IMG/VR virus record: IMGVR_UViG_3300023179_000029
Span: 1-64,000 of that record
Source of the DNA: a virus
Direction: 5' to 3' (one strand)
DNA: 64,000 nucleotides
Numbering within the stretch: position 1 is the first letter of the stretch; every line of letters begins with the position of its first letter. Below the pieces are notes generated by a model, which saw only the letters and a program-made list of their open reading frames with translations, ran no database searches and was not told the DNA's origin. The position numbers and the translations under genes were made by a program. Below, piece by piece: positions 3,334 to 23,700 of this stretch.

Positions 3334-5793
3334 TTACTGCCAGTCATCTGGATTTTCCTCAATGTCTCTAAGCAAATCCTTAATTTCATCGTCGTCTGGT
3401 GAATCTACGAATTCAAATGGATCGGTGTCTTCAATGTCTTTAAAATCTTCGTCAATATCAAGGTCAACATCTTCATCACCTTCATCAACAACCTTTACGC
3501 GGTCGCCCTCTTTGTCTTCGCGCTCAATGATTCGCTCAACATCTTCTGGAGTTTCCTCAACGATTACTTCTTCTTCGACTGGCTCTTCAAGAGGCTCTTC
3601 AACAAGATCCTCAACAGAAGGCTCATCAACTGCTGGTTCATCAATAGGAGCGTCTTGACGTTCGCCAATTACATCATCTCCTTCTGCTGGTGCAGGAACG
3701 TCTTGAACGAACTGCTTCCAAAGTGAGCGAATAACAGGGCTTTCTTTAAGTAATTCTGGATCATCTAGCATTTCGATGCCATGATCGGCAAGCCAATTGC
3801 GGAACAATGAATCTTCACTGTACCAAGCAGCTAAAGCTTTGCGAGTTACAGGATCAGCTTGCCCTTTGTCGGGAAAAGTTTCGGCAGCTTTGGTGGGCTG
3901 CTCAATGTTGCGAGTGCCTTCAAATCCAGCCTCATCTTTTTTTGCAGTAGGAAGCTGCTCGCGCTCCCAAACATTATTATCATGCTCCCATGGATCATCA
4001 TTCTGGTAATCAGGCTTCTGCTTGATATCCATCTGACGAGAAGGAACGGGGGAGTTTTCACCTTCAGTGTCAATAGGCTCTAGGTTGCCGTCTGCATTAG
4101 TAGCGTTGGGAACCCACTTTTTCTTGTCAATCTTTGGAGAAGGTCCGCCAAGAGCAGATTCATCACCGGTTGGAAGCTTTTCGCGTTTTTCTGTCTTGTC
4201 ACCGGTATCGACTTCGGCAGCATGTTTAAGTTGAAGCGCTCTAGCCATAGCGGGAGTCACTGAAGTTTGTTTACGAGGCGCGGCAAATGGATCCTCATAA
4301 CCAAACTCAAATTCGTCATCAAGTGTAGGTTCAGGAGCGGCTGGTGTCTGGGGCTGAGGTTGAGGTTGTTGCTGTTGCTGTCCCACGCCAAAAAAATCTT
4401 TTGCCCTATCAACTAAACCGGGCTTTTGCGGAGGTACGAGATCTTGAGGCGTCAGACCAAAAGAACCGTCATGAGGCGCGGCAAATGGATCGTCATAATC
4501 AAACTCATCATCAAGTGTAGGATCGCTGATTGGAGGGACGCCAAGGGCCTCTCTAAATTTATTATATTCTTCAATTGGATTGATCTCAGGGCCGCCGGGA
4601 CGAGGAATAAATTTACGAGTAGCATAACTTGCAAAAGTTCCGTCGCATTCCGGAGAACAACGGTCGCCTTCTACCAACCCAGTCCCTTTATACATTATAC
4701 AATCTGGGCAAATATTTTCAATAACGGCTTTTTCCATAGTTTCTTTATTCAAATTTCTTAGGGCTTTTGTTCCTCCCCAAATGGCCTTACCAATATCGCC
4801 AAATATTCCGGCTTTCTTTTCAAGATTCTCAAGATCATTAAGTTCATTAGCGCGAGCATAAGCGTCTTCCTGAGAATCAAATGGGCCAGCAGCCTCTTCT
4901 CCCTTGTCCTCTACAACAACAAACTTATCGCCCTTCTTCTCTACTGTATGAGCAGCGGCTTCCTTGCCAGTTCCAACGGCGCTAGGGGCCTGCTCAAGAG
5001 CGGTTTCAATATCTTCGCCACCGGCGGTGTAGCCGGGGCGCTCAGCTAAAGGGACAGGATTGGCAATTGGCTGTGAATTAATTTCAGCAGTCTTATTTCT
5101 AAGATTGCCGCCGTCCTCTTGATCCTCATCTTGAATCTGCTTTTTAAGCCAAGGATTAACCTGCGAATGCTCTTCTGCAAGCTGAACTTCATCCTGAGCC
5201 TTGAGATGCTCTGGGCGATCTGAGGCAAACTTAGAGGGTTGATCTGAATCTCCGCTGCATTGTGCGCAACCATGTCCGCCACAGTTTTGGCATATGGATT
5301 GATCGCCATTAGGCGTTAAATCATAGAAAGTCTTAATAGCCTTGATAACGCTTTCTACGGGATGCTGAGTCGCGCCCTGAGGAATTGGTCCTAGTGTTGC
5401 AAGAATCTGATCCTTAACCTGATCAAGATGATATCGAGCGTTTTCTTCAGTCTCGTTCTGAGTACCATAAGTTTGAATAATATAATTTACTGCTTGATCC
5501 CAAGAATCATCTTGATTAATTAAATTACCTTCCATAGCTTCAAAGGCCATTTTGATAGACGTTGCGATCTTCTCAGCGTCTCCGCCATATTCGTAAGCTA
5601 CATCAGCAACCATGTTGTCGATATCCTGCTCAACAAGAGCTAGGCGGCTCTCAAATTCCTTCTTGCTTGAAGCTTGGCGAAGGAATCCAGCAAATTTGTC
5701 GTTAAAACGCTTGTTGGCAACAGCAATAGCCTGACGAGTAGCGACCTTATCGCCCTCATCAAACATTTCAAGTTCTTCAAAAATTCCGCTCAT
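3334..5793 (-). CDS. Large acidic mosaic putative head/internal protein
   Basis: 819 aa, very D/E/P-rich, with recurring K-x-A motifs and an internal PTLDDEF..DPFAAP duplication; good RBS. Confidence 0.5.
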   Translation of the reverse strand: MSGIFEELEMFDEGDKVATRQAIAVANKRFNDKFAGFLRQASSKKEFESRLALVEQDIDNMVADVAYEYGGDAEKIATSIKMAFEAMEGNLINQDDSWDQAVNYIIQTYGTQNETEENARYHLDQVKDQILATLGPIPQGATQHPVESVIKAIKTFYDLTPNGDQSICQNCGGHGCAQCSGDSDQPSKFASDRPEHLKAQDEVQLAEEHSQVNPWLKKQIQDEDQEDGGNLRNKTAEINSQPIANPVPLAERPGYTAGGEDIETALEQAPSAVGTGKEAAAHTVEKKGDKFVVVEDKGEEAAGPFDSQEDAYARANELNDLENLEKKAGIFGDIGKAIWGGTKALRNLNKETMEKAVIENICPDCIMYKGTGLVEGDRCSPECDGTFASYATRKFIPRPGGPEINPIEEYNKFREALGVPPISDPTLDDEFDYDDPFAAPHDGSFGLTPQDLVPPQKPGLVDRAKDFFGVGQQQQQPQPQPQTPAAPEPTLDDEFEFGYEDPFAAPRKQTSVTPAMARALQLKHAAEVDTGDKTEKREKLPTGDESALGGPSPKIDKKKWVPNATNADGNLEPIDTEGENSPVPSRQMDIKQKPDYQNDDPWEHDNNVWEREQLPTAKKDEAGFEGTRNIEQPTKAAETFPDKGQADPVTRKALAAWYSEDSLFRNWLADHGIEMLDDPELLKESPVIRSLWKQFVQDVPAPAEGDDVIGERQDAPIDEPAVDEPSVEDLVEEPLEEPVEEEVIVEETPEDVERIIEREDKEGDRVKVVDEGDEDVDLDIDEDFKDIEDTDPFEFVDSPDDDEIKDLLRDIEENPDDWQ

Positions 5794-11205: not shown

Positions 11206-13071
11206 TTATCCTACTCTAATTGGAGTGATCGAAAGGTGTCGATCATAAACTGTCAGCGTTCCGCCGCCAGTGACCTTGTACTGGGCGTAGAGGCTGCCTG
11301 CGGTCAAAGTTGCATTGACAATTCTAGACCCGTTATATAGATGCGAGGCAACATCAGTTTGAATATCAAGTTCAAGGCCGGTTACGGGGGTCGCACCGGT
11401 GGTGGTGACGGTGCAAAGTCCCATATAATTATTTCTAACGCTGTTGGAATCGTTTGCTGCCGACATACCAAATTCAACCTTGTAAGTTCCCGCAAGAGGA
11501 ACTGTAACAAATGGACCACTGACACCCGTTGCCATAGTATAAGTATATGATGCAGACGCAGTAGTGCCATTTCCAACATTTTGAACGACAGAGCCGCCGC
11601 CAAGAAAATCCCATTTGGTTGTTGTTGAATTGTACCTCAGATGCCAAATCACGCCGGGAAAATTAGTTGCATCAACTATATAATAATACTCAAGTCCATC
11701 ATAAAGAGAAACGCCCGATGGAAGAGTTTGTCCGTAACCAATAGTCGTAGCAGCGGTCACTCGGCCTTTAGTGTCGACCGTAACTTGATCATAAGTACCG
11801 GCGCTAACGCCAGTAGTGCTGAGCTTATCCGAAGTTATCGCAGCATTGCGAATATGATCCGTTGTTACCGCACGATTTGAATCGGTAACAGCATCGCTTT
11901 TAAGAATTGTGCTATCGACTGTTCCAGAATCAGCAGATGTAATTACATTAGCATTAACAGTTACATTGGGAAATGTAATAGTTTTATTTGGAGCCGCTTG
12001 AATAGATGTAATGGTTACAGGATTAGAAGTACCATTAAGTATTGGCGCAGAAATTGTTGGAGATGTATCAAGAACTGCTTTACCAGTGCCGGTTTTATCA
12101 GTAATCGACGTACCATTAATTTTAAATATATTGCCGGTGCTAGCAGTGTCGTAAGTTTTGTTGGTAAAACTATCTTGAGTTGCTTTACCAACAAGCGTGT
12201 CATTTGCGGCAGGAAGTGTAATCGTATAATCTGTTGCGCTAGAATTAGCTGATGAAATAGTAGTTTTACCCGTGCTAGATCCGTTGATCTTAGGAGTTTT
12301 TAAAGAGGGGGAGTCGTTAAATACCAACAAACCACTGCCAGTTTCATCACTAAGAGAATCAATTAAAATTGCCGAAGTTCCTTGATTAGTTGGACTAAAG
12401 GTAGCAATAGGTCCTAAACCGAGATTAGTACGAGCAGTTGATGCAGTTGATGTAAGTTCGTTTAAATTATTACTTAATCTAAGTACTCCGGCGTCGTAAA
12501 CCCAAGATGATGCGCCATCAGTAATGAATCTTCTAAATCCATAAGCTGTACCAATTGTGACAGTGCTATTAACTACGCCATTAATATTTTGGCCAGTCGT
12601 TGGAATAATATCGATTTTTATTGTATCGTTATTTAAACCAGCGCCAGCTTGAATGATAACCTCTGTACCGGCAGCTAAACTGCTGGCCGATGGCAATGTT
12701 ACAGTTCGGCTAGCACTAATTGTTTGAGTTTGTCTAACAATCGTGCTTTTTGTGACAGGAGTATTAGTGGGACCGGCATTATTAAGATTGATATTGCTAG
12801 TTCCATCCCAATTAACATCAATGAAATCTGGTGGCCGTCCATTAGACAAACGGGTGTCACTAGCTAAAACAAATTTTGTGCTGTCTGTGTCTGATGATGT
12901 TGCAATCGCGGCCGGATCGATTGCGGAAAATTTAATTTTAATACCTTTAGTGCCACCAGTATGATCATGAACATCAATTGTAGTCCAGTTTGCTGCAAGT
13001 TGAGTATGATTATATGCATCAGATAACTGATCCCATACATTTAAACTCATATTTGTTGTAGTAGTGGCCAT
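11206..13071 (-). CDS. Tail fibre-like protein, paralog 1
   Basis: Same N-terminal module, GVSAGTYDQVTVDTKGRVTAA fibre repeat, WHLRY..WDFLGG domain, ends ITPIRVG. Confidence 0.7.
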   Translation of the reverse strand: MATTTTNMSLNVWDQLSDAYNHTQLAANWTTIDVHDHTGGTKGIKIKFSAIDPAAIATSSDTDSTKFVLASDTRLSNGRPPDFIDVNWDGTSNINLNNAGPTNTPVTKSTIVRQTQTISASRTVTLPSASSLAAGTEVIIQAGAGLNNDTIKIDIIPTTGQNINGVVNSTVTIGTAYGFRRFITDGASSWVYDAGVLRLSNNLNELTSTASTARTNLGLGPIATFSPTNQGTSAILIDSLSDETGSGLLVFNDSPSLKTPKINGSSTGKTTISSANSSATDYTITLPAANDTLVGKATQDSFTNKTYDTASTGNIFKINGTSITDKTGTGKAVLDTSPTISAPILNGTSNPVTITSIQAAPNKTITFPNVTVNANVITSADSGTVDSTILKSDAVTDSNRAVTTDHIRNAAITSDKLSTTGVSAGTYDQVTVDTKGRVTAATTIGYGQTLPSGVSLYDGLEYYYIVDATNFPGVIWHLRYNSTTTKWDFLGGGSVVQNVGNGTTASASYTYTMATGVSGPFVTVPLAGTYKVEFGMSAANDSNSVRNNYMGLCTVTTTGATPVTGLELDIQTDVASHLYNGSRIVNATLTAGSLYAQYKVTGGGTLTVYDRHLSITPIRVG

Positions 13072-13135
13072 AAAACTCTCTAATATTAAATACTTGATCG
13101 TGGCTCTGTTAAAGCCTTTTATCGATCATAGCAGA

Positions 13136-13405
13136 TTACAATAAAATTTTCAAGGCTAATTCGTGAGTGCAACCGCCATCAAGCATTTTCTTGACTTTAT
13201 GCCACGAAAGCGGAAAACTATATGACTTTCCATTAATGACATCGATATGGTTTGCGTTAGCAAGTTGCTCCGCCTGATCCTTAGAAAAACCAAGCGATAC
13301 AAAGGTTTCAACCCTATGATCTGATAGAACATCTTTGTCGGTTTCGGTGGTTGCCATATCTGACTCCCAAGGCCAAGGGTCGTATTTATATTGCCTCTTA
13401 TTCAT
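13136..13405 (-). CDS. Hypothetical protein (alternative start 13357)
   Basis: 89 aa ORF; GGAG RBS before both candidate starts. Confidence 0.55.
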   Translation of the reverse strand: MNKRQYKYDPWPWESDMATTETDKDVLSDHRVETFVSLGFSKDQAEQLANANHIDVINGKSYSFPLSWHKVKKMLDGGCTHELALKILL

Positions 13406-13431
13406 TAGTCTCCGTTTGTGAGTGTTTTAAG

Positions 13432-13502
13432 CTGGGGGACAGGGATTCGAACCCCAATTCCTCGGACCAGAACCGAGTGTCTTGCCGTTAGACGATCCCC
13501 CA
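13432..13502 (-). tRNA. tRNA-Gln(CTG)
   Basis: TGGGGGA acceptor, CTCGG-TTCTGGT-CCGAG anticodon arm, GGTTCGAATCC T-arm; no encoded CCA. Confidence 0.93.
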
Positions 13503-13509
13503 GTAAGAT

Positions 13510-13866
13510 TTACCTATCGAATTTTAACCAACGAATGATGCTTTTTTCAACAGGCTTAGCCAAATCTTCTACGGTCTTCTTGCCTTTTTCATCCATTCCA
13601 ACAGGAATTTTATGATCTTTAATGAATTTGACCGCCCAATCCTTGTTGTCTAATGTACTAGTGGATGTTTGAGATTTGCCAATATTGTATTGACGCAATA
13701 CATTTAATTCATTCTTTAGCCGATCTCGCTCGTCTTTAAGCTGATCAATCTCGTCTTCAAGAATGATAACTTGGAATATGTACCGATCCAGAGTTTCTTC
13801 AATTTCGTCAAAACGCTCACCAAGAGCCTTAGCTTCAGCCTTCCAATATTTCTTATTCTTCTTCAT
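13510..13866 (-). CDS. Hypothetical coiled-coil protein
   Basis: Likely start ATG 13866 (MKKNKKYWK) with AAGGA RBS; the ORF track extends it to 13935. Confidence 0.55.
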   Translation of the reverse strand: MKKNKKYWKAEAKALGERFDEIEETLDRYIFQVIILEDEIDQLKDERDRLKNELNVLRQYNIGKSQTSTSTLDNKDWAVKFIKDHKIPVGMDEKGKKTVEDLAKPVEKSIIRWLKFDR

Positions 13867-14152
13867 TATTTTCCTTTCTGCAACAACCGTCGCAGCCATG
13901 TATAGATTCAATACTAGCAGCCCTAGGGCCAACATTACGAGAAATCCAATTAATATGATCTAAATCGGGATGACCTATCCCATGCTTGCAAATTCTCTCC
14001 ATCATACCGCGATCATCGCGCCAATGAGTCGGCCAATCTTTCATATTATGATCCGAGGGGTTATGAATACAACAACCGTGCTTACGGCAATCTTCGGTTT
14101 CATTATGAACATTTAAGACTTTTTGTTTTGTTCCTGTAATATATTTATTCAT
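13853..14152 (-). CDS. His/Cys-rich small phage protein
   Basis: CCIHNPSDH..WP..WR.DRG.MERICKHGIGHPD motif, which I recall from actinophage hypothetical proteins. Confidence 0.7.
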   Translation of the reverse strand: MNKYITGTKQKVLNVHNETEDCRKHGCCIHNPSDHNMKDWPTHWRDDRGMMERICKHGIGHPDLDHINWISRNVGPRAASIESIHGCDGCCRKENNEEE

Positions 14153-14154
14153 AA

Positions 14155-14177
14155 TGCCCCCGGCAGGACTCGAACCT
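14155..14177 (-). pseudogene. 3' fragment of disrupted tRNA-Lys(TTT)
   Basis: AGGTTCGAGTCCTGC-CGGGGGC-A: T-loop and acceptor strand complementary to GCCCTTG at 14766-14772. Confidence 0.85.
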
Positions 14178-14184
14178 AGTTTAA

Positions 14185-14258
14185 TGGGGGCGGTAGGGAT
14201 CGAACCTACAAATCGTCTGATTAAAAGTCAGGTGCTGTACCAATTTAGCTACACCCCC
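14185..14258 (-). tRNA. tRNA-Lys(TTT), intact
   Basis: GGGGGTG/CGCCCCC acceptor, CCTGA-CTTTTAA-TCAGA anticodon arm, GTAGGTTCGATCCCTAC T-arm. Confidence 0.93.
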
Positions 14259-14694
14259 GAAATTGAAGCGTATACTTATAATAGTTATAAGTTTTTGCTG
14301 TGCGGCGTTTATGACAATTTGCGCATACTACTTCGCATTTGTCAATTTCTTCTAAAATACGTTCAAATGTATATCCTTGCATTATCATCTCTGATACATT
14401 TTTGAATTTGTCTCTTTGATGATCAAACTCAAGTACTATTATATCAGATTCATTGCAGTCAACGCAAGGGTGATTTTTTAAATACTCAACAACCTTGCTT
14501 TGACTATTGCCAATGTTTGCATTTTTGCGTTTTAAAATATCTTGTTTATGTTTCTCTCTATTTTCTGCGTAATATTGTCTAGACCTAGCCCGATTGCATT
14601 CACGACATACATTTTGTTTTCCATCGGGGCGACTAGTTTTTTTATTATACTCAGAAAGCGGTTTTTCTTGTTTGCAAAGTGTGCATTGTTTCAT
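14245..14694 (-). CDS. HNH endonuclease with N-terminal Zn finger
   Basis: KQCTLCKQEK..CREC finger and HPCVDC..VLEFDH..KCEVVCANCH nuclease; likely start ATG 14694; stop codon lies inside tRNA-Lys. Confidence 0.9.
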   Translation of the reverse strand: MKQCTLCKQEKPLSEYNKKTSRPDGKQNVCRECNRARSRQYYAENREKHKQDILKRKNANIGNSQSKVVEYLKNHPCVDCNESDIIVLEFDHQRDKFKNVSEMIMQGYTFERILEEIDKCEVVCANCHKRRTAKTYNYYKYTLQFRGCS

Positions 14695-14726
14695 AACTTT
14701 TAACTTGCGCAAATAGTTAAAAGTTA
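14694..14726. repeat. Perfect 12-bp inverted repeat over the HNH start
   Basis: TAACTTTTAACT (14694-14705) and AGTTAAAAGTTA (14715-14726), 9-nt spacer. Confidence 0.85.
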
Positions 14727-14733
14727 GTAATAA

Positions 14734-14772
14734 ATTAAAAGTCCGCTACTCTACCAATTGAGTTACAAGGGC
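14734..14772 (-). pseudogene. 5' fragment of disrupted tRNA-Lys(TTT)
   Basis: GCCCTTG TA ACTC AATTGGTA GAGT A GCGGA CTTTTAA T: acceptor, perfect D-arm and anticodon loop, then an abrupt stop. Confidence 0.88.
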
Positions 14773-14790
14773 GAGCAGAGATATGATAGC

Positions 14791-14819
14791 AAAGCCCGGA
14801 CCATGTTTCAAGTCCGGGC
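14791..14819 (-). terminator. Intrinsic terminator after the holin, abutting an extended -10 (TGcTATCAT)
   Basis: GCCCGGAC/GTCCGGGC stem followed by TTT. Confidence 0.65.
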
Positions 14820-14844
14820 CAAGCCAAGATAGGATCACCTCAAG

Positions 14845-15051
14845 TTAGTTCTTTGGGGGAAGTGCTGAACGAATACCAACTGCTGATGCAAACGCAATAA
14901 TGGTAGTGAGAATCTTCTGTGCCGATGAAGTGGCCGAACCGCCAAGAACACCAGACTGAATGATGAATGTAGCGGCGCCAACAAAAATACCATAAGCAAA
15001 TGATACTTGAGCCTTTGTAAGATGACGGAGCCAATTAATAAACTTTGTCAT
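14845..15051 (-). CDS. Holin (putative)
   Basis: 68 aa with two hydrophobic segments and a basic tail; strong AAAGGAGG RBS; near the endolysin. Confidence 0.65.
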   Translation of the reverse strand: MTKFINWLRHLTKAQVSFAYGIFVGAATFIIQSGVLGGSATSSAQKILTTIIAFASAVGIRSALPPKN

Positions 15052-15085
15052 ATTACCTCCTTTCAGTTATTACTTGTCGCAATCA

Positions 15086-15158
15086 TGCCATGGACAGGGT
15101 TCGAACCTGTATAAAACCGATTATGAGTCGGGCGCCTAAACCATTCAGCCACCATGGC
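15086..15158 (-). tRNA. tRNA with CAT anticodon (elongator Met or lysidine-Ile2)
   Basis: GCCATGG/CCATGGC acceptor, CCCGA-CTCATAA-TCGGT anticodon arm. Confidence 0.88.
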
Positions 15159-15161
15159 CTA

Positions 15162-15234
15162 TAGTCCCGCCGGGATTTGAACCCAGAATACGACTTTATA
15201 AGAATCGCGTGTTTACCACTTACACCACGGGACA
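15162..15234 (-). tRNA. tRNA-Ile(TAT)
   Basis: CGATT-CTTATAA-AGTCG anticodon arm, GTGT/ACAC D-stem, CTGGGTTCAAATCCCGG T-arm; U1.U72 mismatch, A73. Confidence 0.82.
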
Positions 15235-15308
15235 AGCCGAAGGTCGGATTCGAACCGACGACATCTGCTTTACAAGAGCAGCGCTCTGGCCAACTGAGCT
15301 ACTTCGGC
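15235..15308 (-). tRNA. tRNA-Thr(TGT)
   Basis: GCCGAAG/CTTCGGC acceptor, CTGCT-CTTGTAA-AGCAG; upstream TGgTATAAT. Confidence 0.95.
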
Positions 15309-15317
15309 GTAAGCCTA

Positions 15318-16706
15318 TTATACCAGATAATTCATGTCACAATTGCCGATGCCCTTAGCCGACTTAGGGCTAAGAACACCTGTTGTGCCATCTGTGTATT
15401 GGCAAGCCCAAAGATGGGGTTTAGCAATAGCCGGAACAGTAGTTTCAGGTTTAGCAGTATAAGCAGCATGCCAATAACGAAGGGGCTTACCTTTATGATC
15501 TTTGGGCCACTTAGTTACGGTACCGGGGAGGTACCAGCCGCCACTATAAATAACGCGAACAGTATAACCTAAACGCCATGCTTCAGTAATAAAGTCTGCA
15601 ATCCACTTATCGCCGTTTTTATTTTGAAACTTGGGATCCTCCCAATCAAGAACAAGTCGATCATCAGGATTAAGCTTGCCAGCGGCCTTAATAGCATCAG
15701 TGAAATTCTTTGCCTCTTGCTGAGGGGTATTATTACTTGGACGGGCAAAATGATAAATAAAACGAGTAAGCCCAATGCGACCAGCTTCGCGAAAACGAGC
15801 TTGAAATGCAGAATCCTTAAATGTGCGACCTTCGCTAGCTTTTAATACAATAAGTGGATAACCGCCAGATTTATATTGTGAAAGGTTTACTGTCCTCTGA
15901 CCTTCGTAACAGTCCGCAAAATACTTAGCATTAGGATTCTTAGGCTTGGTAGGAGGCTTAGGTGTTGGCTTAACAGGGGGCTTGACTGGAGCAGGAGTTG
16001 GCTTAGAAGGCTTTACCGGAGGCTTGGGATTAACGGGGGGCTTAGGAGTAGGTTTAGACTTAACAGGGCCGTTAAGAGCCTTCCAAGTGCCGGGACCGAC
16101 AATTCCATCGGCAGTGAGTTTATAATCCTTCTGGAATTTCTTTACTTGACGAGTAGTTAGGGCGCCAAAACCATTATTGTTAATTGGGTATACGGCGGGC
16201 CAATAACCATGCTTTTTAAGGAGCTTCTTAAGAGTTACGCAATAACCATTTTTATCACCCTGCTGAATAGTAGGTTCGACCTTGTACTTATCAACGGCTG
16301 AATAATGGCCTTCCTTCCACTTGAAATGCCAAGGCTCAGAAGGAGCATCACTCCATGACTTTGACCAACCAAAATCCTTGCCGTAATTAGCAATAAGCCT
16401 TTGGGTCTGATAAGGAACGTCAAGAGCAAGACCCAATCCGTGATTAGAAGTGCCGGGACGCGCTGCAAGGTTGCCGCCGTTTTGGTAACGCTCCCAAGCG
16501 GCCCATTGGCTCCAACGATTAGCTCGCCAATCGCCGGGCTTACCGAGCGGACGATAAGAATCATTAACCTCTACGGTTTGACCGTGCTTTTCTTTTACAT
16601 AACGAGCAAAAGCATTCCAAGCATCAGCGGCGTCATGACGAAGGCGGCCACCGCCAGCAATATTAGTTAATTCGCTGTTTTTAAGTTGTCCGTTAGCACT
16701 CATCAC
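15318..16706 (-). CDS. Endolysin: M15/VanY-like peptidase, PG-binding domain, Pro/Lys linker, GH25 muramidase
   Basis: SYR..PGTSNHGLGLALD..EPWH; VKKFQ..L.ADGIVGPGTW; LKASEG..YHFARP..VLDWE..QYT..CDMN. Confidence 0.92.
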   Translation of the reverse strand: MMSANGQLKNSELTNIAGGGRLRHDAADAWNAFARYVKEKHGQTVEVNDSYRPLGKPGDWRANRWSQWAAWERYQNGGNLAARPGTSNHGLGLALDVPYQTQRLIANYGKDFGWSKSWSDAPSEPWHFKWKEGHYSAVDKYKVEPTIQQGDKNGYCVTLKKLLKKHGYWPAVYPINNNGFGALTTRQVKKFQKDYKLTADGIVGPGTWKALNGPVKSKPTPKPPVNPKPPVKPSKPTPAPVKPPVKPTPKPPTKPKNPNAKYFADCYEGQRTVNLSQYKSGGYPLIVLKASEGRTFKDSAFQARFREAGRIGLTRFIYHFARPSNNTPQQEAKNFTDAIKAAGKLNPDDRLVLDWEDPKFQNKNGDKWIADFITEAWRLGYTVRVIYSGGWYLPGTVTKWPKDHKGKPLRYWHAAYTAKPETTVPAIAKPHLWACQYTDGTTGVLSPKSAKGIGNCDMNYLV

Positions 16707-16738
16707 ATATTATATTCTTGATATACAATTTTATTGAG

Positions 16739-16812
16739 TAGGGGCGGTGGGATTCGAACCCACACTGTAGGGATTTTAAGTCCCCTTTCTCTGCCAGTTG
16801 GAATACGCCCCC
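16739..16812 (-). tRNA. tRNA-Leu(TAA) with short variable loop
   Basis: GGGGA-CTTAAAA-TCCCT anticodon arm, variable loop ACAGT, 74 nt. Confidence 0.9.
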
Positions 16813-16824
16813 AAGATCATTATA

Positions 16825-17295
16825 TCAGATGTTCATGCGCCTAGCATACTCTGACCATTCTCCATCAGACCTCTGCAAAAGAGATGTAATTGTTTCTGAA
16901 TTTACAGTCCAAGATCCATCATTATTCATTTCGCAATAAATGACCCTATCGACAATGGACAAAAGTTGTCTTGCACAAGACAAACATGGACGAGAATTTT
17001 TTGCAAAATTGCCAGCCCTTGTCAAAGTTACGATACATACTGTGTCAGCATCAAAATCTCTTGGCAAATTTGTAATAGCATCATGTTCTGCATGAACAGA
17101 AGCAATGGCCATACCGCCATTATGGTTATGCGAACAACCTTTAGCAAAAATTTCTGGCCTTTTACCATTTTTAAAAATTACTGCCCCAGTACGATGACGC
17201 TTGTGAGTAGAACGCCTCGCCTGTTTGCAAGTTTCTTCCCAAACGGTAAGAGGAGCAACTTCTGTAAGAATGCTTGTAGATGGAATGTTCTTCAT
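16825..17295 (-). CDS. Zn-dependent cytidine/dCMP deaminase-fold protein
   Basis: HAE..PCxxC (SVHAEHDAI, SRPCLSC); likely leaderless start ATG 17295, 6 nt after TGcTATACT. Confidence 0.85.
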   Translation of the reverse strand: MKNIPSTSILTEVAPLTVWEETCKQARRSTHKRHRTGAVIFKNGKRPEIFAKGCSHNHNGGMAIASVHAEHDAITNLPRDFDADTVCIVTLTRAGNFAKNSRPCLSCARQLLSIVDRVIYCEMNNDGSWTVNSETITSLLQRSDGEWSEYARRMNI

Positions 17296-17316
17296 AACAC
17301 TAGTATAGCATAAGAC

Positions 17317-17341
17317 AAAGACCGGCACAAGGCCGGTCTTT
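17317..17341 (-). terminator. Hairpin terminator after the tRNA cluster
   Basis: AAAGACCGGC-cttgt-GCCGGTCTTT. Confidence 0.65.
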
Positions 17342-17388
17342 GCTGACATGTATAGTTGAAATAATTCAACTTTTGTTCCCTTACGGGA

Positions 17389-17461
17389 TAGCGGAGGCGG
17401 GAATCGAACCTCGCGACCTCTAGGATATGAACCTAGCGAGCTACCACTGCTCCACTCCGCG
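17389..17461 (-). tRNA. Initiator-type tRNA-fMet(CAT)
   Basis: CGCGGAG TGGAGCAG start, C1.U72 mismatch, CTAGG-TTCATAT-CCTAG anticodon arm; upstream TGgTATAAT. Confidence 0.85.
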
Positions 17462-17501
17462 ATGTATACACATTATACCACACTCTAATGTGATTTTCAA
17501 G

Positions 17502-17573
17502 TAGCGGGTAGGAGAATCGAACTCCTATCGCGGGTGTGAAAAACCCGAATCCTGACCGTTAGACGAACCCGCC
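17502..17573 (-). tRNA. tRNA-Glu(TTC)
   Basis: CGGGT-TTTTCAC-ACCCG anticodon arm, GGAGTTCGATTCTCC T-arm; upstream TGaTATAAT. Confidence 0.92.
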
Positions 17574-17598
17574 AAGTTTTGTCATTATATCATATTTA

Positions 17599-17670
17599 CT
17601 GGTCCGGTAGGATTCGAACCTACAACCGTCGCCTTAACAGGGCGCTGCACTGCCATTGTGCTACGGACCA
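17599..17670 (-). tRNA. tRNA-Asn(GTT)
   Basis: TGGTCCG/CGGACCA acceptor, CGCC-CTGTTAA-GGCG anticodon arm; 5' end overlaps the HNH stop. Confidence 0.92.
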
Positions 17671-18020
17671 ATGGTGGTAATACCATTTTCAACTTCTCTA
17701 TGGCAATTGGCACATAATAGCACACATTTATTAGCCTCTTCAAGAAGTTTATCAAATGATTTACTTAATCCTTTTTGACCTAAACCAAAATTTTTGTCAT
17801 TAGGATCAATATGATGAAACTCAAGGGCCGCTGAACATTTGTCGTATTTACAAATTTGACATTTGCCCCCAAAATGAGAAACTAATTTCAATTTGTTTTT
17901 ACGACGCTGCTCGGCAACTCTATCTTGTCTACATTGTTTGCATCTGTAATAACCACGACCCTCCAGAACAAATTCTGTTAGGCCGTGGTGTTTACATTCT
18001 TTTGTAATATATTTTTTCAC
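17661..18020 (-). CDS. HNH endonuclease
   Basis: CKHHG..RCKQC finger; GGKCQICKY..ALEFHHIDP..KCVLLCANCHRE. Confidence 0.9.
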   Translation of the reverse strand: MKKYITKECKHHGLTEFVLEGRGYYRCKQCRQDRVAEQRRKNKLKLVSHFGGKCQICKYDKCSAALEFHHIDPNDKNFGLGQKGLSKSFDKLLEEANKCVLLCANCHREVENGITTIGP

Positions 18021-18065
18021 ATATATTATATGTCGGTATATTACAAAATGTTATACCGAAGAAGG

Positions 18066-18188
18066 TGAGTCGCCAATGCTTTTCCGCTTGCACATAGTAG
18101 ATCATCGCCTATTGATTAATTCTACTTTTTCATCAATAGGTTAGGCGGTTTCATTATTATTTATACCGATAATAATGGGCGACTCAAC
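18066..18188 (-). ncRNA. Candidate structured ncRNA with pseudoknot
   Basis: Three perfect 9-bp helices, a 4-bp helix and a 6-bp loop pseudoknot; TGtTATAAT promoter at 18193-18201. Confidence 0.6.
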
Positions 18189-18209
18189 ACTCATTATAAC
18201 AGATTTTTA

Positions 18210-18282
18210 TGGGCGGTGCAAGGCTCGAACTTGCGACCTACTCGGTGTAAACGAGTTGCTCTCCCAACTGAGCTAACCGCCC
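18210..18282 (-). tRNA. tRNA-Val(TAC)
   Basis: GGGCGGT/ACCGCCC acceptor, ACTCG-TTTACAC-CGAGT. Confidence 0.95.
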
Positions 18283-18299
18283 TTATTTGTTTACTACAA

Positions 18300-18373
18300 T
18301 CGGGATGGTAGGATTTGAACCTACGACCCTTCGCTCCCAAAGCGAATGCGCTACCAGACTGCGCCACATCCCG
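18300..18373 (-). tRNA. tRNA-Pro(TGG)
   Basis: CGGGATG/CATCCCG acceptor, TTCGC-TTTGGGA-GCGAA. Confidence 0.95.
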
Positions 18374-18377
18374 TGAT

Positions 18378-21300
18378 TTATATTCTACCTTGATAATAAA
18401 GTGCTTTATCTTGATAAGTTTGTGCTGCAAATTTAGGTTGTATTGAAATAACTATTTTAGCATTAGTTAAATTAAGATTATTAATTTCATTATTTAAATT
18501 TGAAACTGAGTAAGCATTAATAATAAATGTGTTTGATAATGGTAAGCTTTGTATTTGAAAAGACCCATTGTATTTATTTGCATTTGTACCAGTAATACCA
18601 ATAATAGTTACTGAATCAAATTGTCCACTTTTACCTCTAATATTATGATCATTTGCAGTCGTAAATGTCAATTGTTTATAATTAGAACTTTGTTTAATAT
18701 CAATTATACTAACAAATTCTTCTAATTGCAACTTAGAATATAAAATTCTTTGACCGACTCCGTTACTGGTATCTGACCCTGATGATAATGAAAGACTCAA
18801 ATTTTCAAATGTAGCAGGATTATTTTTATCATTTAAAACAAGATAAGGAAAAGTATAATTCATTACTTTAGTAATAGTTCCCGTATTTTCATTGACCACG
18901 CCAGTCGGCGGATTTAAACCAAATTCAGAAACAGGAATAGTAAAAGTTTTAGTTTTAGAGTTTCCTGTTACAGTTATCGGTAAATCAGTTGATTTAGCTT
19001 GACCACTTTGAGTAGAGTTTGCAAGGGTAACAGTTTTTTCAATTGTAAATTGAGAATCGGTTCTTGTAGCAACGGTTCCAGTGATATTATATCCAGTTGG
19101 TAACATTCCTGTAATTGTTACTGTTTGACCAACAACAAATTTATTAGATGCAAAATAAGTTAATTTAGTTCCATTACTTGAAGCATTAGTAACACTTGTT
19201 GTGTAAAGCGTGTTATATTTTGTATCTCCAGTTATTCCAGAAATAATGACTCTTTGCCCGGTAATTAATTCGTGAGCGGATCTTGTCGTATATGTTACAG
19301 TATCGCCGCTGACAGATGCAGATGCAATAAGAATATTTTCCGTGGTAAAATACGGCATTTTAAATTTAACAGTTTTTCTGTCATCACTAATTGCATCATT
19401 TTCTGAACTAATTTCTATACCATTTGGAAAATTTTTTAAAATAGACTTAGAAGATCCATATAATCTGTAAATTTTAGTTCCCGTGGCCCACAAACTTGGA
19501 ACTGGAGTGGTAAATGTGGCAAATGTATCGCCTTTATTAACTGTAAAAGTTCCAGATTTTAAAGCCCCGTTTTTAGAACGATAAAGGCCTCTTTCGTTGT
19601 TAGTTCCGGCATCAGGATTAGAACTTGCGCTGCGAATAACGTAAGCAGTTTCATCACTAACCCAGTTAAAATACATTACATTTTCAATTTGCCAATTTGG
19701 CAATTCAAGTAAATTTTTAAAACTTGTGATGGAACTATCCCAAGACAACAATCTGTCTATGTATGTGTTTTGCTCTGTTTCAGATACAGCACCATCGCCA
19801 TAACCTATTTGATCAGTGGACCACCCATACTCGCTAAGAATTAGATTTGGACAAGTCAAATTATTAACTGTTGGGATGCCATAGCCGTTTTTATCTTGTT
19901 GGAAAATTGTTTGGTAATTCGGATCGTCTGTAAATTGTCTTATCAATACGGTTGATGCTTTTGCTCCATTATAATCACTTGGATATATATTTACACCAAA
20001 TTTATCATATGCATATTTTCCATTTTTAATTGCAAATATTTTTGGATAAGTCGTCTTTGGAATAGTTACCGCATTTGAAACAGCGTTTGCGTTTGGATCA
20101 ACGTCATGCATTTCTTTTTTGATAATTTTAATAAAATCGATAAAACTATATGCAAATTCATATGCATAATCTTTTACAGAAACAGATTTATTAAAAATAC
20201 CATCTGTAGTTTTTAATTTAATTTGTTTAGGATGAAAAGGCCAATTGGCTCCACGAACAAGTAATTCTTGATCCATTGTGTGCGTTGGACCGTCGTTAAT
20301 TCGAAATTTAAAATCTGCGGGATAATTTCTTTTTCCATAAGCAGCAGAATCGCACTCGTTCCAAATTTGATAATTGATCATTTTTGGAAAAATTAATTTA
20401 ACGGGTACACCCGCTGGCATTGTTTTATTTAAAGGTTTATCAATTGTAATTTGGTTTCCATTAATTGAACAAATTTTTGCATTTGGAGGAATATATGAAT
20501 CGTTACCATTTTGCGCAGTCGATGGGACAGATCCGTATGCATCGCTTTCTATTGTCATCCCGACAACAATATTTGATGTTGTCGGATAGCTACTATCAAT
20601 AATTAAATTAATAGTTTGATTATAACTTGTTGAAATAACGCTAGACGAAGCGGAAGTAACCGTAGTAACGTCGTTATTTAATCCGCTCCAAAAAGAACCA
20701 TTAGTGCCGAACCTTATTAACATTTTATTCATAAAATTAGCAAAATCATTATAATTTGAAGGAATTGACCCTCCTCTTCTTTGCAAATTAGTTGCAAATA
20801 TCACCGCATCATTAACTGAATCAAAAGTAAAAACATCACCATTAGATATACTTTTACTTTTACCATTAATAACATTGTTATTTTCATAATTAGCAATAGT
20901 ACCAATAACATAACCATCTACAACGCCAGTTATATTTTGATTTAAATTAATTTTCCAAGTATCGTTGACGCGAGTTAATGATGTAATTCGGGTATCATCT
21001 TGAATATTGGTACCGGTTATAACCATATTTGGAAGTAACAAACACCCTCTTTTTAAATCATCAATTATAATAAATGAATCACCAGAATTACCTGTTGCAT
21101 AAATTTTGACGCCTTTATTTTGTAATTGAGTTTTTGTTTCTGGGTCATTAAAAGAAAACAAATTGGTATTGTCAATTTTGTAATCCCAATCCATCGCCCA
21201 ATTAGGCGGAGATCCTAATCTTGGCATCACTTGAATTCCTACTTCGCTTGCTAATTTTAAATAATTTTCTAAAGGAAAAATTGAATTATTCCAATTAATT

Positions 21301-21761
21301 GAATGATTTAAAATTCCACCTACAACAGTTGGAGCATTAGGTTCAAAATCTTTCCAAAAAACAGATGTTCTAACTGACTCTACACCACTGGCCGCCATAT
21401 TGTGCAAAATGTATTCAATATTTTTTTGATTATTAAAAAAATAAATATTTAAATTTGTAATATTTTTATTTACATTTGCATTTAAAGTAATTTGATTACC
21501 AGTTTTACCAATAACTCTAGTCGGCTCTCCATTACTATTTAAAGCAGGAATGTTTACACCAGTTACAAACTGGCCAATTTCTATACCCGTTGAACTTGCA
21601 ACCGTAACAATATTTTGTCCGGCGGTGGCCGATTGACAAATAGTTTTAATTTTTGTAGATTCAACAGAACTACCATTGTACATGGTAAAACCGTTTGTCA
21701 AAAATGTAGTTGGAAGTAAATTACTTCCAATAAAAGTCACTGGGTATTTTCTTGTAGCCAT
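18378..21761 (-). CDS. Large GH-A clan (GH39/GH5-like) glycoside hydrolase interrupted by beta-rich modules
   Basis: GVESVRTSVFWKDFEP, LGSPPNWA, YQIWNE (acid/base), LILSEYGWS (nucleophile), YFNW; AT-rich. Confidence 0.7.
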   Translation of the reverse strand: MATRKYPVTFIGSNLLPTTFLTNGFTMYNGSSVESTKIKTICQSATAGQNIVTVASSTGIEIGQFVTGVNIPALNSNGEPTRVIGKTGNQITLNANVNKNITNLNIYFFNNQKNIEYILHNMAASGVESVRTSVFWKDFEPNAPTVVGGILNHSINWNNSIFPLENYLKLASEVGIQVMPRLGSPPNWAMDWDYKIDNTNLFSFNDPETKTQLQNKGVKIYATGNSGDSFIIIDDLKRGCLLLPNMVITGTNIQDDTRITSLTRVNDTWKINLNQNITGVVDGYVIGTIANYENNNVINGKSKSISNGDVFTFDSVNDAVIFATNLQRRGGSIPSNYNDFANFMNKMLIRFGTNGSFWSGLNNDVTTVTSASSSVISTSYNQTINLIIDSSYPTTSNIVVGMTIESDAYGSVPSTAQNGNDSYIPPNAKICSINGNQITIDKPLNKTMPAGVPVKLIFPKMINYQIWNECDSAAYGKRNYPADFKFRINDGPTHTMDQELLVRGANWPFHPKQIKLKTTDGIFNKSVSVKDYAYEFAYSFIDFIKIIKKEMHDVDPNANAVSNAVTIPKTTYPKIFAIKNGKYAYDKFGVNIYPSDYNGAKASTVLIRQFTDDPNYQTIFQQDKNGYGIPTVNNLTCPNLILSEYGWSTDQIGYGDGAVSETEQNTYIDRLLSWDSSITSFKNLLELPNWQIENVMYFNWVSDETAYVIRSASSNPDAGTNNERGLYRSKNGALKSGTFTVNKGDTFATFTTPVPSLWATGTKIYRLYGSSKSILKNFPNGIEISSENDAISDDRKTVKFKMPYFTTENILIASASVSGDTVTYTTRSAHELITGQRVIISGITGDTKYNTLYTTSVTNASSNGTKLTYFASNKFVVGQTVTITGMLPTGYNITGTVATRTDSQFTIEKTVTLANSTQSGQAKSTDLPITVTGNSKTKTFTIPVSEFGLNPPTGVVNENTGTITKVMNYTFPYLVLNDKNNPATFENLSLSLSSGSDTSNGVGQRILYSKLQLEEFVSIIDIKQSSNYKQLTFTTANDHNIRGKSGQFDSVTIIGITGTNANKYNGSFQIQSLPLSNTFIINAYSVSNLNNEINNLNLTNAKIVISIQPKFAAQTYQDKALYYQGRI

Positions 21762-21815
21762 TAAAAATTTGTTAATATTGGTTTATCAACTATTATTATC
21801 AAGTAATTGTGCAAA

Positions 21816-21897
21816 TGGTGGGGGCAGGATTCGAACCTGCGAACTCTGAGAGAGAGGTTTTACAGACCCCGTGCGTTGACCGCTTGCATACCCCACC
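21816..21897 (-). tRNA. tRNA-Tyr(GTA)
   Basis: GGTGGGG/CCCCACC acceptor, GGGGT-CTGTAAA-ACCTC, long variable arm. Confidence 0.93.
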
Positions 21898-21944
21898 GTA
21901 ATACTTTATAAATTATCAATGTACTAGTAATAGTATATCATAAC

Positions 21945-21970
21945 AAAAGAGGCTCCACAAGGGAGCCTCT
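21945..21970 (-). terminator. Intrinsic terminator after nrdJ
   Basis: AGAGGCTCC..GGAGCCTCT followed by TTTGTT. Confidence 0.75.
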
Positions 21971-22002
21971 CCGTACTGCTAAACTATATGCTCAGACAAG
22001 TC

Positions 22003-23700
22003 TTAGGTCCCACACAGGCCTCCGACACAACGCTCTTCGGTCTCCTCAAATACGACGCCAACCTTGTCTTTAGCTTCCTCATAAGTAGAAATCGTAAGGG
22101 GCTGTCCGCCTCTTGACCCATCGGGGTAGCATGTGATGCCTCTGAGATGTGGTAGATAGCCGTACAGAAGATCTGCGAAATCTGCAACCTCTGTAGGATC
22201 CGTCATTGGATACGGGGTGTTAATTGTTGATGAAATACCATGGTCGACAAACTGCTGAACCCATGCTTGCATTGAAATACGACGCTCAACATCATAAGAA
22301 AGAGTATAAGCATCTTCAATCGCCTCTGGGTCAACGCCTTCATCAATTAAACGCTTAGCAGTAGGATCAATTACATACTGGTAACGAATGATATCCTCAC
22401 CATTGGGCTGAGCCTCCTTATAACGGCGCTTGAAAGCAACGCAGAAAATAGGCTCGATCCCAGTGGTGGTTTCGGCAATAATTCCAATTGTGCCGGTAGG
22501 AGCAATAGCGCGAGTTTTAATTGGAGCATTAAGTCCGTGCTTCTCAGCCCACTCTGCGGCAAACTCTCCGGAATCAGCGTATTCGCCAAGCCATTCGCCA
22601 AGCTCAAGATCGGGACCGTATTTCTTGCCCCTTTTAAGTAGCCATTCATGGATGCCCATGACACCAAGGCCAAGACGACGATTCTGGGCGCGAACTTCCT
22701 TCACCTTGTCGTAAGGAAGATCTGAATACACGGTTCCGGCAAGTAGGAATAGTGTTCCGTACTTAACGACCTCGCGCATTTCTACGATATCCTCAATCCT
22801 TGAAAGATTAATTGATCCAAGATTGCAAATATCCGAATCGTCATGTGATGTAACTTCGGTACATGCGTTACGAAGAGTTTCACCGGTATTCTCACCAATG
22901 TCTACGCTAAATCCGGGTTCAGCGGTCTTAACCATGTACTGAACGCCAAGATGGTAAATGTGATGGGCAATTTTGTGCTTAGGATGATCCTTGTTTTCAT
23001 AAGCAACAAAGAATTCATCATCAAGTAGAATGGAAATGTTTGTGAATTCCATATCTGCTGGAAAATTAAAATCTTTAGCCTTAATTTCACGAACTTCATC
23101 ACGCCAATCCTTGATGCGAATGAATTCCTCGCAATCTGGATGTGACCAATTGAGACCGGCCCAGATAGCAGAGCGACGAGCGCCACCCTGCATAACCCCG
23201 CGACCAATTTCATTAACCATCTTCATTAGAGGAATAGGTCCGGATGCGACTCCGCCAGTCCTTTTAATAGGGGTATTTGATGGGCGAATATCGGAATAAT
23301 CAATACCAATGCCAGCACCTGTCTGTAGAGCCATAGCTGACTTGGCAAGAAGATCCGCCCAACCTTCCCTAGAATCCTCTGCCCTAAGGAGAAGGCAATT
23401 CTGGGTCTGATGTAGATCCCTTCCGGAAGCGTAAAGATAACGACCACCGGGAATAAACTTCCTATCCCGAACGTAACCAAAAAGTTTATTGAACTCGACA
23501 CTATCCTCATCATAGCCAAGAGCACCAAGGACATTACTTACTACACGACGAGCAGTATCCTCCCAATTTTCAATTACATTACCTTCTTCATCCTTCCAAG
23601 CATATTTTTGTTCGTAAATGGTCTTAGCGAACTCACTCATCTCTAAAGATGAATCATGACTTACTTCATTAGTTGTATTTAGTTCTGTTACTTGATTCAT
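22003..23700 (-). CDS. nrdJ: Ribonucleotide reductase, class II (B12-dependent) type
   Basis: PGGRYL, NC, GAGIGIDYS, NACTE, CNLGSINL, RRLGLGVMG, IAPTGT..TTGIEP, C-terminal CxxxxC; no beta-subunit gene nearby. Confidence 0.88.
   Translation of the reverse strand: MNQVTELNTTNEVSHDSSLEMSEFAKTIYEQKYAWKDEEGNVIENWEDTARRVVSNVLGALGYDEDSVEFNKLFGYVRDRKFIPGGRYLYASGRDLHQTQNCLLLRAEDSREGWADLLAKSAMALQTGAGIGIDYSDIRPSNTPIKRTGGVASGPIPLMKMVNEIGRGVMQGGARRSAIWAGLNWSHPDCEEFIRIKDWRDEVREIKAKDFNFPADMEFTNISILLDDEFFVAYENKDHPKHKIAHHIYHLGVQYMVKTAEPGFSVDIGENTGETLRNACTEVTSHDDSDICNLGSINLSRIEDIVEMREVVKYGTLFLLAGTVYSDLPYDKVKEVRAQNRRLGLGVMGIHEWLLKRGKKYGPDLELGEWLGEYADSGEFAAEWAEKHGLNAPIKTRAIAPTGTIGIIAETTTGIEPIFCVAFKRRYKEAQPNGEDIIRYQYVIDPTAKRLIDEGVDPEAIEDAYTLSYDVERRISMQAWVQQFVDHGISSTINTPYPMTDPTEVADFADLLYGYLPHLRGITCYPDGSRGGQPLTISTYEEAKDKVGVVFEETEERCVGGLCGT

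Follow-up and report, generated by a model that had tools for sequence, protein, structure and literature searches.

The 64,000-nucleotide (nt) stretch of DNA analysed here (the window) is part of a 127-kb viral record derived from a metagenome, IMGVR_UViG_3300023179_000029, and holds 12 tRNA genes on its minus strand between 21900 and 13400 as predicted by ARAGORN. In this array, which belongs to a lake phage, a resident tRNA-Lys(UUU) gene is broken by a 556-nt insert (14733-14178, minus strand) which stands in place of exactly 11 nt of the gene and contains, in order, a leader hairpin, a gene for a predicted 149-amino-acid (aa) HNH endonuclease, a complete tRNA-Lys(UUU) gene and 7 nt. The resident gene is defunct. 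The carried one, apparently intact, has come to lie behind the resident promoter-like site. Together the hairpin, the HNH gene, which would encode a free-standing homing endonuclease, and the second tRNA-Lys(UUU) gene probably form a mobile cassette that was copied into the resident gene in a cut-and-rescue design. What the sequences show is the anatomy of the locus, its empty site, a carried tRNA of foreign origin and the linkage of this tRNA to the nuclease gene; their best reading is a free-standing homing endonuclease that is specific for one tRNA isotype and linked to a spare copy of its target.

The initial annotation of this DNA, correct in its main lines and supported in part, saw in the locus a third strategy beside introns and inteins. 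This is overstated, as intron-less homing, SegB and the gene-splitting endonucleases mobE and mobA are in print (PMC2988022, PMC2330249). The cassette is a variant of intron-less homing, of which SegB of phage T4 is an example, and not a wholly new strategy. What sets it apart is the package: a putatively isotype-specific HNH nuclease inserted in the target itself, a target broken outright, and a spare target welded to the 3' end of the nuclease gene. In the literature searched there was no description of an HNH-plus-tRNA cassette splitting a tRNA gene, nor of anticodon-loop repeats before such genes.

Anatomy of the interrupted tRNA-Lys gene

The initial annotation described two old tRNA halves, an HNH gene, a divergent complete tRNA-Lys(UUU) and a 7-nt remainder on the minus strand, and all of these elements were found where it had placed them (Table 1). 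The old 5' part holds the acceptor strand, the D arm, the 5' anticodon stem, the loop CTTTTAA and one further T. It is recognised alone as a 3'-truncated tRNA in a 117-nt Rfam search (E 3.6e-4), and in 984 kb searched by nhmmer with our own tRNA profile it has an E value of 0.041 against 0.25 for the best shuffled sequence. The old 3' part holds 3 base pairs (bp) of the T stem, the T loop, the 3' T stem, the acceptor strand and A73, and is followed by TT and then the ATG of a gene for a 99-aa protein, as it is in the related locus L014. These 23 nt are at noise level by themselves (no Rfam match; nhmmer E 0.19 in 984 kb) and too short to be identified alone, so their identity rests on synteny with L014. 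The promoter-like site ends about 10 nt ahead of the old 5' part. The consensus scan that located it found five sites in the region against 5.1 expected and gives weak evidence when taken alone; conservation of the stretch extends to L013, L014 and L015.

Table 1. Features of the interrupted tRNA-Lys(UUU) locus, and leader repeats in related loci (L numbers denote loci compared with the window).
Feature	Position	Strand	Basis
Promoter-like site of resident tRNA-Lys unit (TTGAAA, 17 nt, TG-TATCAT)	14783..14811	-	Consensus scan, 10/12 matches with TG
Resident, broken tRNA-Lys(UUU), 5' part, positions 1-39	14734..14772	-	Rfam truncated tRNA, 27.1 bits; 37/39 identical to L014
Cassette leader, 39 nt	14695..14733	-	Inverted repeat; RNA fold
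Predicted HNH endonuclease gene, 149 aa	14245..14694	-	ATG 14694, stop 14247-14245; phrog_2255
Carried complete tRNA-Lys(UUU) gene	14185..14258	-	ARAGORN tRNA-Lys(ttt); Rfam tRNA, 63.6 bits, full length
7-nt spacer, final bases of insert	14178..14184	-	Limits set by L014 alignment and joints 14177/14734 and 14177/14733
Resident tRNA-Lys, 3' part, positions 51-73	14155..14177	-	22/23 identical to L014
Leader inverted repeats	L151:1454-1500, L163:1154-1200, L159:1150-1195, L154:37790-37834, L152:1426-1500, L153:1461-1500, L003:2930-2990, L005:2965-3000		

With the neighbouring 99-aa protein as query, 129 related viral loci were found and 80 of them were kept. The three closest are L013, L014 and L015, with 82-84% identity in this protein. 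L014 has an unbroken tRNA-Lys(ttt) at the same place, behind the same promoter region and 2 bases ahead of the same start codon, which is the uninterrupted gene that the initial annotation had proposed to look for in a related genome. The old halves match the L014 gene at 37/39 and 22/23 positions, compared with 29/39 and 16/23 for the carried tRNA, and L014 has 11 nt at the place of the window's 556 nt. What the resident gene lacks is positions 40-50, comprising the 3' anticodon stem, the variable loop and two T-stem bases. The tRNA-Lys site is polymorphic among these relatives, in that L013 (3960-4000) and L015 (3960-4000) have neither a tRNA-Lys nor visible remnants of one, as against L014 (3925-3999); the gap in L013 and L015 lies between the conserved promoter region and the 99-aa gene.

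Further joints come from Logan contigs of X2 and X3, lake metagenome runs from other studies, aligned to the window at 80% likeness. A contig of X2 joins 14177 to 14734 via 11 other letters instead of 556, and a contig of X3 joins 14177 to 14733 via 10 letters instead of 555, with 41 letters on its shorter side. Regions without contig cover in X2-X4 were taken as uninformative.

That the old halves still yield a working tRNA, by splicing or by joining of half transcripts, is extremely improbable. Their acceptor strands still pair (five G-C and two G-U pairs), but 11 nt of the tRNA body are missing, and splicing therefore cannot restore the old gene. Rfam found no intron family in 13000-22500 at E<=1, only tRNAs (two 'Plastid-ycf2' rows being tRNAs read on the opposite strand), and ARAGORN with introns allowed predicted no intron-bearing tRNA gene spanning the insert. 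Nor is there room for a ribozyme core, since only 39 nt precede the open reading frame (ORF) and the tRNA fills the space after it. A group I intron in the tRNA gene was rejected for want of a Rfam intron match and for the 11 missing exon nt, and a split tRNA gene joined at the RNA level was rejected as the halves are without positions 40-50. The initial annotation is thus upheld in that about 11 nt are missing beyond repair by splicing (11 nt by L014; 11 and 10 letters in X2 and X3) and in that no group I core is visible.

Origin of the carried tRNA and its linkage to the nuclease

The carried tRNA-Lys is 68-69% identical to the tRNA-Lys of L014. Other tRNAs of the same array are closer to those of the relatives, with 99% for tRNA-Pro, 97-99% for one tRNA-Met and 93% for tRNA-Ile, and the tRNA-Lys-like DNA in the close relatives is of the old type only (G002). 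On these identities the carried gene appears to be a foreign and distinct tRNA-Lys(UUU), in agreement with the initial description of it as a different tRNA with the same anticodon. No homologue of the HNH ORF was found in the records of the three close relatives (G001-G003; loci L013, L014 and L015), and one more distant record has a weak homologue (E 1.1e-5) elsewhere. The absence of the insert from these three relatives and the empty sites in L014, X2 and X3 support the view that it is an acquired unit, as expected for the mobile element that the initial annotation had proposed.

The last 14 nt of the HNH ORF, stop codon included, are the first 14 nt of the carried tRNA, so that the stop codon does lie inside the new tRNA. 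Proteins related to the HNH ORF number 1011 at E<=1e-10. Among them P0002-P0007 (95-64% identity) have FRGCS or FRGV at the C-terminus, which is what the first bases of the carried tRNA encode. These shared C-terminal residues indicate that ORF and tRNA have stayed welded over this whole range of identity and, with the 14-nt overlap, they bear out the claim that nuclease and tRNA form one cassette. An exact DNA pattern of the old 5' part had no match in viral contigs, and the 3 kb around the site had no megablast match in cultured phages. Scans with the P0002-P0007 alignment of viral contigs and, among the matches listed, of metagenome contigs found only relatives at 50% identity or less.

The window comes from a metagenome, and related phages with other alleles occur in similar samples, so an assembly chimera, in which two tRNA-Lys alleles of co-occurring phages were mis-joined, was considered and its chance is judged negligible. 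Mis-joining at tRNA sequence common to both alleles should produce a hybrid tRNA; what is seen is a nested tRNA with an ORF running into it in frame. Two Logan contigs of run X1, which is perhaps the source sample and in that case not independent, match the window without difference, one at each junction, and the same protein is on record from two contigs.

One match in X2 (record 10, window 14576-15161) has an HNH start about 95% identical to that of the cassette (first 128-nt region, 6 differences) joined to tRNA-Met, and shows that a close relative of the cassette sits in the same neighbourhood of another phage. Its link to the tRNA-Met consists of 305 unlike letters compared with 344 in the window; the 39 letters by which they differ are as many as the old 5' part has, a coincidence from which nothing is concluded. 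Another X2 contig, ambiguous at 80% likeness, runs from the promoter region through 15 other letters into a tRNA-Lys start resembling the new type, and from there jumps to tRNA-Gln.

The HNH protein

On sequence grounds the 149-aa protein is filed as an HNH endonuclease of the beta-beta-alpha-metal type. It matches phrog_2255, 'HNH endonuclease' (E 3.7e-32), and phrog_3106 (2.2e-18). Residues C77, C80, D91, H92, C124, C127 and H128 are invariant in 48 aligned relatives and N126 is present in at least 90% of them; we take the His, Asn and His residues and the flanking Cys pairs to have the catalytic roles that they have in the HNH motif. PF01844 was reached by 10 of the 48 relatives (best 6.7e-4), the 149-aa protein itself having no match at E<=0.01, and a sub-threshold Pfam match of the protein to APOBEC3 was taken as chance. 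Its predicted structure has a predicted local distance difference test (pLDDT) score of 94.4. The weak top rows of a Foldseek search are HNH proteins, namely T4 endonuclease VII (E 1.6), Cap5, ZRANB3 and Gme HNH; VIA-align gave a best Z of 5.4 to Hpy99I, over residues 1-39 only, and a Z of 3.4 to Gme HNH. A profile run against PDB sequences found no match. Membership of the SegB family was rejected, there being no GIY-YIG match and all profile matches being to HNH or endonuclease VII families.

The gene has its own start and stop, no intron family was found around it and ARAGORN was negative, which places it outside any intron or intein. Among close relatives it is either present or absent, with a precise empty site, as is characteristic of a free-standing homing endonuclease.

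Association of the HNH family with tRNA isotypes

A quick maximum likelihood tree of 31 non-duplicate HNH rows was made, with support from the SH-like approximate likelihood ratio test (SH-aLRT) and no bootstrap. The window forms one clade (SH-aLRT 91) with L003, L005, L115, L116 and L117. These five, the best of the loci read (43-51% identity), all adjoin a tRNA-Lys, which stands after the HNH gene in L003 and L117 and before it in L005, L115 and L116. Outside this clade a tRNA-Lys adjoins 2 of 25 rows. Two rows with tRNA-Pro(UGG) on both sides pair with each other (97), as do two tRNA-Arg rows (93). From these groupings, clades of the HNH family appear to go with one tRNA isotype each. In 12/31 rows the start of a tRNA falls within a range from 39 nt upstream to 11 nt downstream of the HNH stop. 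The survey of HNH homologues for associated tRNAs suggested in the initial annotation was therefore positive, returning the tRNA-Lys clade, 3'-overlapping tRNAs and the leader repeats described below.

In cultured phages 197 records were matched by tblastn, all at less than 60% identity and mostly from Streptomyces, Mycobacterium and Pseudomonas phages. Fourteen of the 40 listed records were examined, picked to avoid near-duplicates and not at random. The HNH gene lies inside a tRNA array in all 14 and within 130 nt of a tRNA in 13. The same anticodon is found on both sides in JimJam (Pro, and also Leu around a shorter HNH gene), Riptide (Met) and Sham (Pro by ARAGORN), and the same amino acid on both sides in Paradiddles and at the second HNH gene of Bonray (Thr). 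In the remaining phages the two sides differ or one side is without a tRNA.

Several of these records are incompletely annotated. Shifa, DirtMonster and ET08 have no feature under a full-length, 46%-identical HNH match, and in Specks only the last third of the match is annotated. The GenBank record of Sham (L163) labels two tRNAs with a tgg anticodon as tRNA-Trp, which ARAGORN reads as Pro. The array of L005 (2890-4260) is odd, running Lys, HNH, Trp, Phe, His, His, Phe, Trp, Lys, His. Its upstream tRNA-Lys is poorly formed, a tRNA-Trp (87 nt) and a tRNA-His (89 nt) are oversized, and a tRNA-like gene at 3841-3950 contains about 40 inserted nt.

A leader repeat built from the anticodon loop

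The cassette leader holds a perfect 12-bp inverted repeat, with arms at 14726-14715 and 14705-14694, of which the 3' arm reaches as far as the A of the ATG. The anticodon-loop 7-mer of tRNA-Lys(UUU) is found within the 5' arm and its complement within the 3' arm. Folded as RNA, the hairpin has an energy of -10.1 kcal/mol (z -3.94), and 0 of 200 shuffles were as good. No Shine-Dalgarno sequence was found in the leader.

The inverted repeats of relatives lie 27-58 nt before the HNH start and are each made from the loop of the relative's own neighbouring tRNA; they were seen beside tRNA-Lys(UUU), Lys(CUU), Met, Gly(UCC), Pro(UGG), Arg(ACG), Phe and Thr(UGU). Repeats were counted in 25 HNH loci with an adjacent tRNA, the expectation being taken from the loops of non-adjacent tRNAs. 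An exact forward copy of the 7-nt loop occurs in the leader, outside any tRNA, in 8 of these loci against 0.13 expected, an exact reverse complement in 7 (0.12 expected), and both copies at no more than one mismatch in 10 (1.15 expected). Most loci without a loop repeat have leaders shorter than 30 nt. In Streptomyces phages a TTGACA-like box is flanked by the loop repeat. A repeat for a loop of Arg(UCG) type is present in TunaTartare (L164:1140-1185), although no such tRNA lies closer than 350 nt.

The loop repeats tie each clade to one anticodon loop, at the level of DNA or of RNA. The repeat would fit a target-mimicking operator, a remainder of the target loop retained for use as a short homology arm, or a lock on translation.

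tRNA remnants in other phages

Remnants of tRNA genes that are unannotated in the respective records were found at the HNH genes of four cultured phages. In Riptide (L152:1429-1470) the leader has the first half of a tRNA-Met up to the loop and then, at once, the 3' acceptor strand of the same tRNA; the breakpoint, as in the window, is the 3' edge of the anticodon loop. Paradiddles (L153:1935-1970) has a 3' remnant of tRNA-Thr(UGU) under the end of the HNH gene, which begins within the anticodon and shares its acceptor strand with the intact upstream tRNA-Thr. A Lys(UUU)-like 3' remnant lies under the HNH end in Bonray (L162:1617-1666), with the 3' acceptor strand of the window's old tRNA, and TunaTartare (L164:1687-1715) has a 3' tRNA remnant just after the HNH gene.

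Passive capture would involve a chance illegitimate recombination at a tRNA gene and a nuclease with no special tie to tRNA-Lys. It would account for junctions without long homology and for the lack of any tRNA-Lys at the site in L013 and L015, and tRNA arrays are prone to recombination, tRNA-Leu(taa), tRNA-Glu and tRNA-Val of the window being 56%, 70% and 77% identical to those of relatives. However, 6 of 6 rows of the window's HNH clade adjoin a tRNA-Lys compared with 8 of 31 rows overall, which by chance would have a probability of about 4e-5 if rows were independent, which they are not. In addition, the leader repeats the Lys anticodon loop in the way that other clades repeat the loop of their own neighbour, and the break lies at the 3' edge of that same Lys loop. 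We consider passive capture unlikely.

A second HNH gene and the mosaic array

A second HNH gene (17694-18011, minus strand) is 28% identical to the first (E 4.3e-5), and its stop codon, TAG, lies inside the next gene, a tRNA-Asn(GUU) at 17598-17671. Five related records held no homologue of it, an empty answer that proves little there, and inspection by eye showed no tRNA-Asn remnants and no Asn-loop repeat or hairpin. The tRNA-Asn of the window is 79% identical to that of L014 and 67% to that of L013. Compared with L013-L015 the array (12500-22500) is a mosaic, with same-anticodon identities from 99% (Pro) down to 56% (Leu UAA), a spread that suggests repeated replacement of alleles also outside the two HNH sites.

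Proposed mechanism

From the scar at the tRNA-Lys gene we infer a cut and its place, an immunity of the carried tRNA and controls on nuclease expression. The lineage had one tRNA-Lys gene, with its own promoter-like site, ahead of the 99-aa gene. During a mixed infection the nuclease of a cassette-bearing phage may have cut this gene between the anticodon loop and the T stem, the cut ends would have been chewed back by 11 nt, and repair would have copied the cassette from the donor. As there is no long homology at the junctions, the joining would have been illegitimate or via very short matches; a copy of the loop 8-mer is present in the cassette itself, 13 nt from its left end. The carried tRNA would compensate for the lost target and, if uncut, would protect the new host genome. 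The nuclease may be held in check by the burial of its start codon in the hairpin and possibly by self-repression at the loop-like repeat, and 5' processing of the tRNA would remove the last four HNH codons and the stop.

Several observations weigh against this account. The X2 joint has only 23 letters on its shorter side and both metagenome joints were aligned at 80% likeness, for which reason they serve as supporting evidence, and no empty site was found among the Logan contigs of X1, the likely source run. No donor was found, the carried tRNA having 0 exact matches in viral contigs, and homology arms, which ordinary homing would lead one to expect, are absent from the junctions. In cultured phages members of the HNH family mostly lie beside intact tRNAs, so that breakage of the target is not the rule. 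The HNH fold was not confirmed by a fold search, Foldseek giving 0 matches at E<=0.001. Finally, L115 and L003 keep the old-type variable loop beside their HNH genes, which argues against this loop as a general determinant of immunity. The variable loop had been a candidate for that role because one loop is common to the old-type alleles and differs in the carried tRNA.

The swap could also have been kept by selection on the new tRNA-Lys, for example as an escape from a host nuclease that cuts tRNA-Lys, with the HNH gene as the vehicle. Defences that cut tRNA can hit tRNA-Lys, and their neutralisation by phage tRNAs is reportedly the topic of published papers. In T6, SegB-driven amplification of a tRNA gene lets the phage escape a tRNA-cutting defence (PMC13096335). 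There is, however, no sign in the present data of a host defence or of a difference in sensitivity between the two tRNAs, and selection of this kind seems quite improbable as the sole explanation. It is compatible with a homing cassette, to which it would add a benefit, and does not exclude it.

Comparison with known systems

SegB of T4 is a free-standing endonuclease in a tRNA cluster which cuts inside the tRNA genes of relatives at a T-arm motif and drives inheritance of its tRNA region (PMC2330249). Its major cut site in T2L is in tRNA-Asn (PMC2330249; PMC13096335). It carries neighbouring tRNA genes along and can duplicate them; in T6 it amplifies a tRNA gene together with itself, and its homologues are enriched near tRNAs without isotype preference (PMC13096335). 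The cassette resembles SegB in that a free-standing nuclease gene lies in a phage tRNA array. It differs in encoding an HNH and not a GIY-YIG nuclease, and in belonging to a family whose clades, unlike SegB homologues, appear to go with one isotype. Whereas SegB replaces sequence by homologous repair, the cassette leaves its target as two dead stubs, with the spare tRNA overlapping the nuclease ORF.

In the intron-less homing and marker exclusion of the T4 seg and mob genes, the nuclease gene lies beside a resistant copy of the gene that is cut in relatives, and repair copies the nuclease and its flanks; the cut site is hundreds of bp from the insertion site and the allele is cleanly replaced (PMC2988022). 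In the cassette, by contrast, the insertion and the presumed cut site coincide inside the target, as they do for intron-encoded enzymes, and there is no intron. A free-standing endonuclease gene splits a host gene in the case of Aeh1 mobE in nrdA and T4 mobA in gene 60 (PMC2988022). These split genes function as two polypeptides, which a tRNA lacking 11 nt cannot do, and here the carried gene supplies the function. I-TevI represses its own gene at an operator that resembles its homing site (PMC2988022), and the cassette likewise has target-like sequence at the control region of the nuclease. The putative operator of the cassette differs in forming a 12-bp hairpin, free of mismatches, up to the start codon, and this would also fit translational control. 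Group I introns reportedly occur in the anticodon loops of bacterial tRNAs. The cassette lies at the same place in a tRNA gene, but has no ribozyme, has lost exon sequence and cannot be restored by splicing.

Among the coding genes of mycobacterial tRNA arrays HNH genes are the most frequent, and it has been suggested that they generate tRNA diversity (PMC5966550; PMC6582537). Pope et al. 2014, on cluster M phages, is cited as implicating HNH genes in the diversity of tRNA repertoires (PMC5966550), which may bear on novelty.

Implications for phage tRNA arrays

The tRNA arrays of phages vary greatly and play a part in the escape from tRNA-cutting defences, and their reshuffling is known in detail for SegB only. 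The cassette is a clean, datable example, as one event has left a scar in which both junctions survive and for which an empty site exists; target, insertion point and cargo can be read from it directly. The rules seen in the family, namely isotype clades, loop palindromes in the leader and a stop codon inside the next tRNA, lead to testable predictions in the cultured phages JimJam, Sham, Riptide, Paradiddles and Tribute.

More tentatively, these genes may represent a widespread and undescribed class of HNH homing endonucleases, each reading the anticodon loop of one isotype in DNA, travelling with a spare tRNA and bearing an operator palindrome that mimics its target; we put this forward as a possibility that we rather doubt than favour. 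Such a class would be a main force in duplicating, replacing and breaking phage tRNA genes, from lake phages to cultured Streptomyces and Mycobacterium phages. If this is true, a nuclease that reads a 7-nt anticodon loop in DNA, with variants for many isotypes, would be a natural set of specificity variants, and the cassette itself would be a natural gene drive in the style of a toxin and antidote, acting on a single RNA gene.

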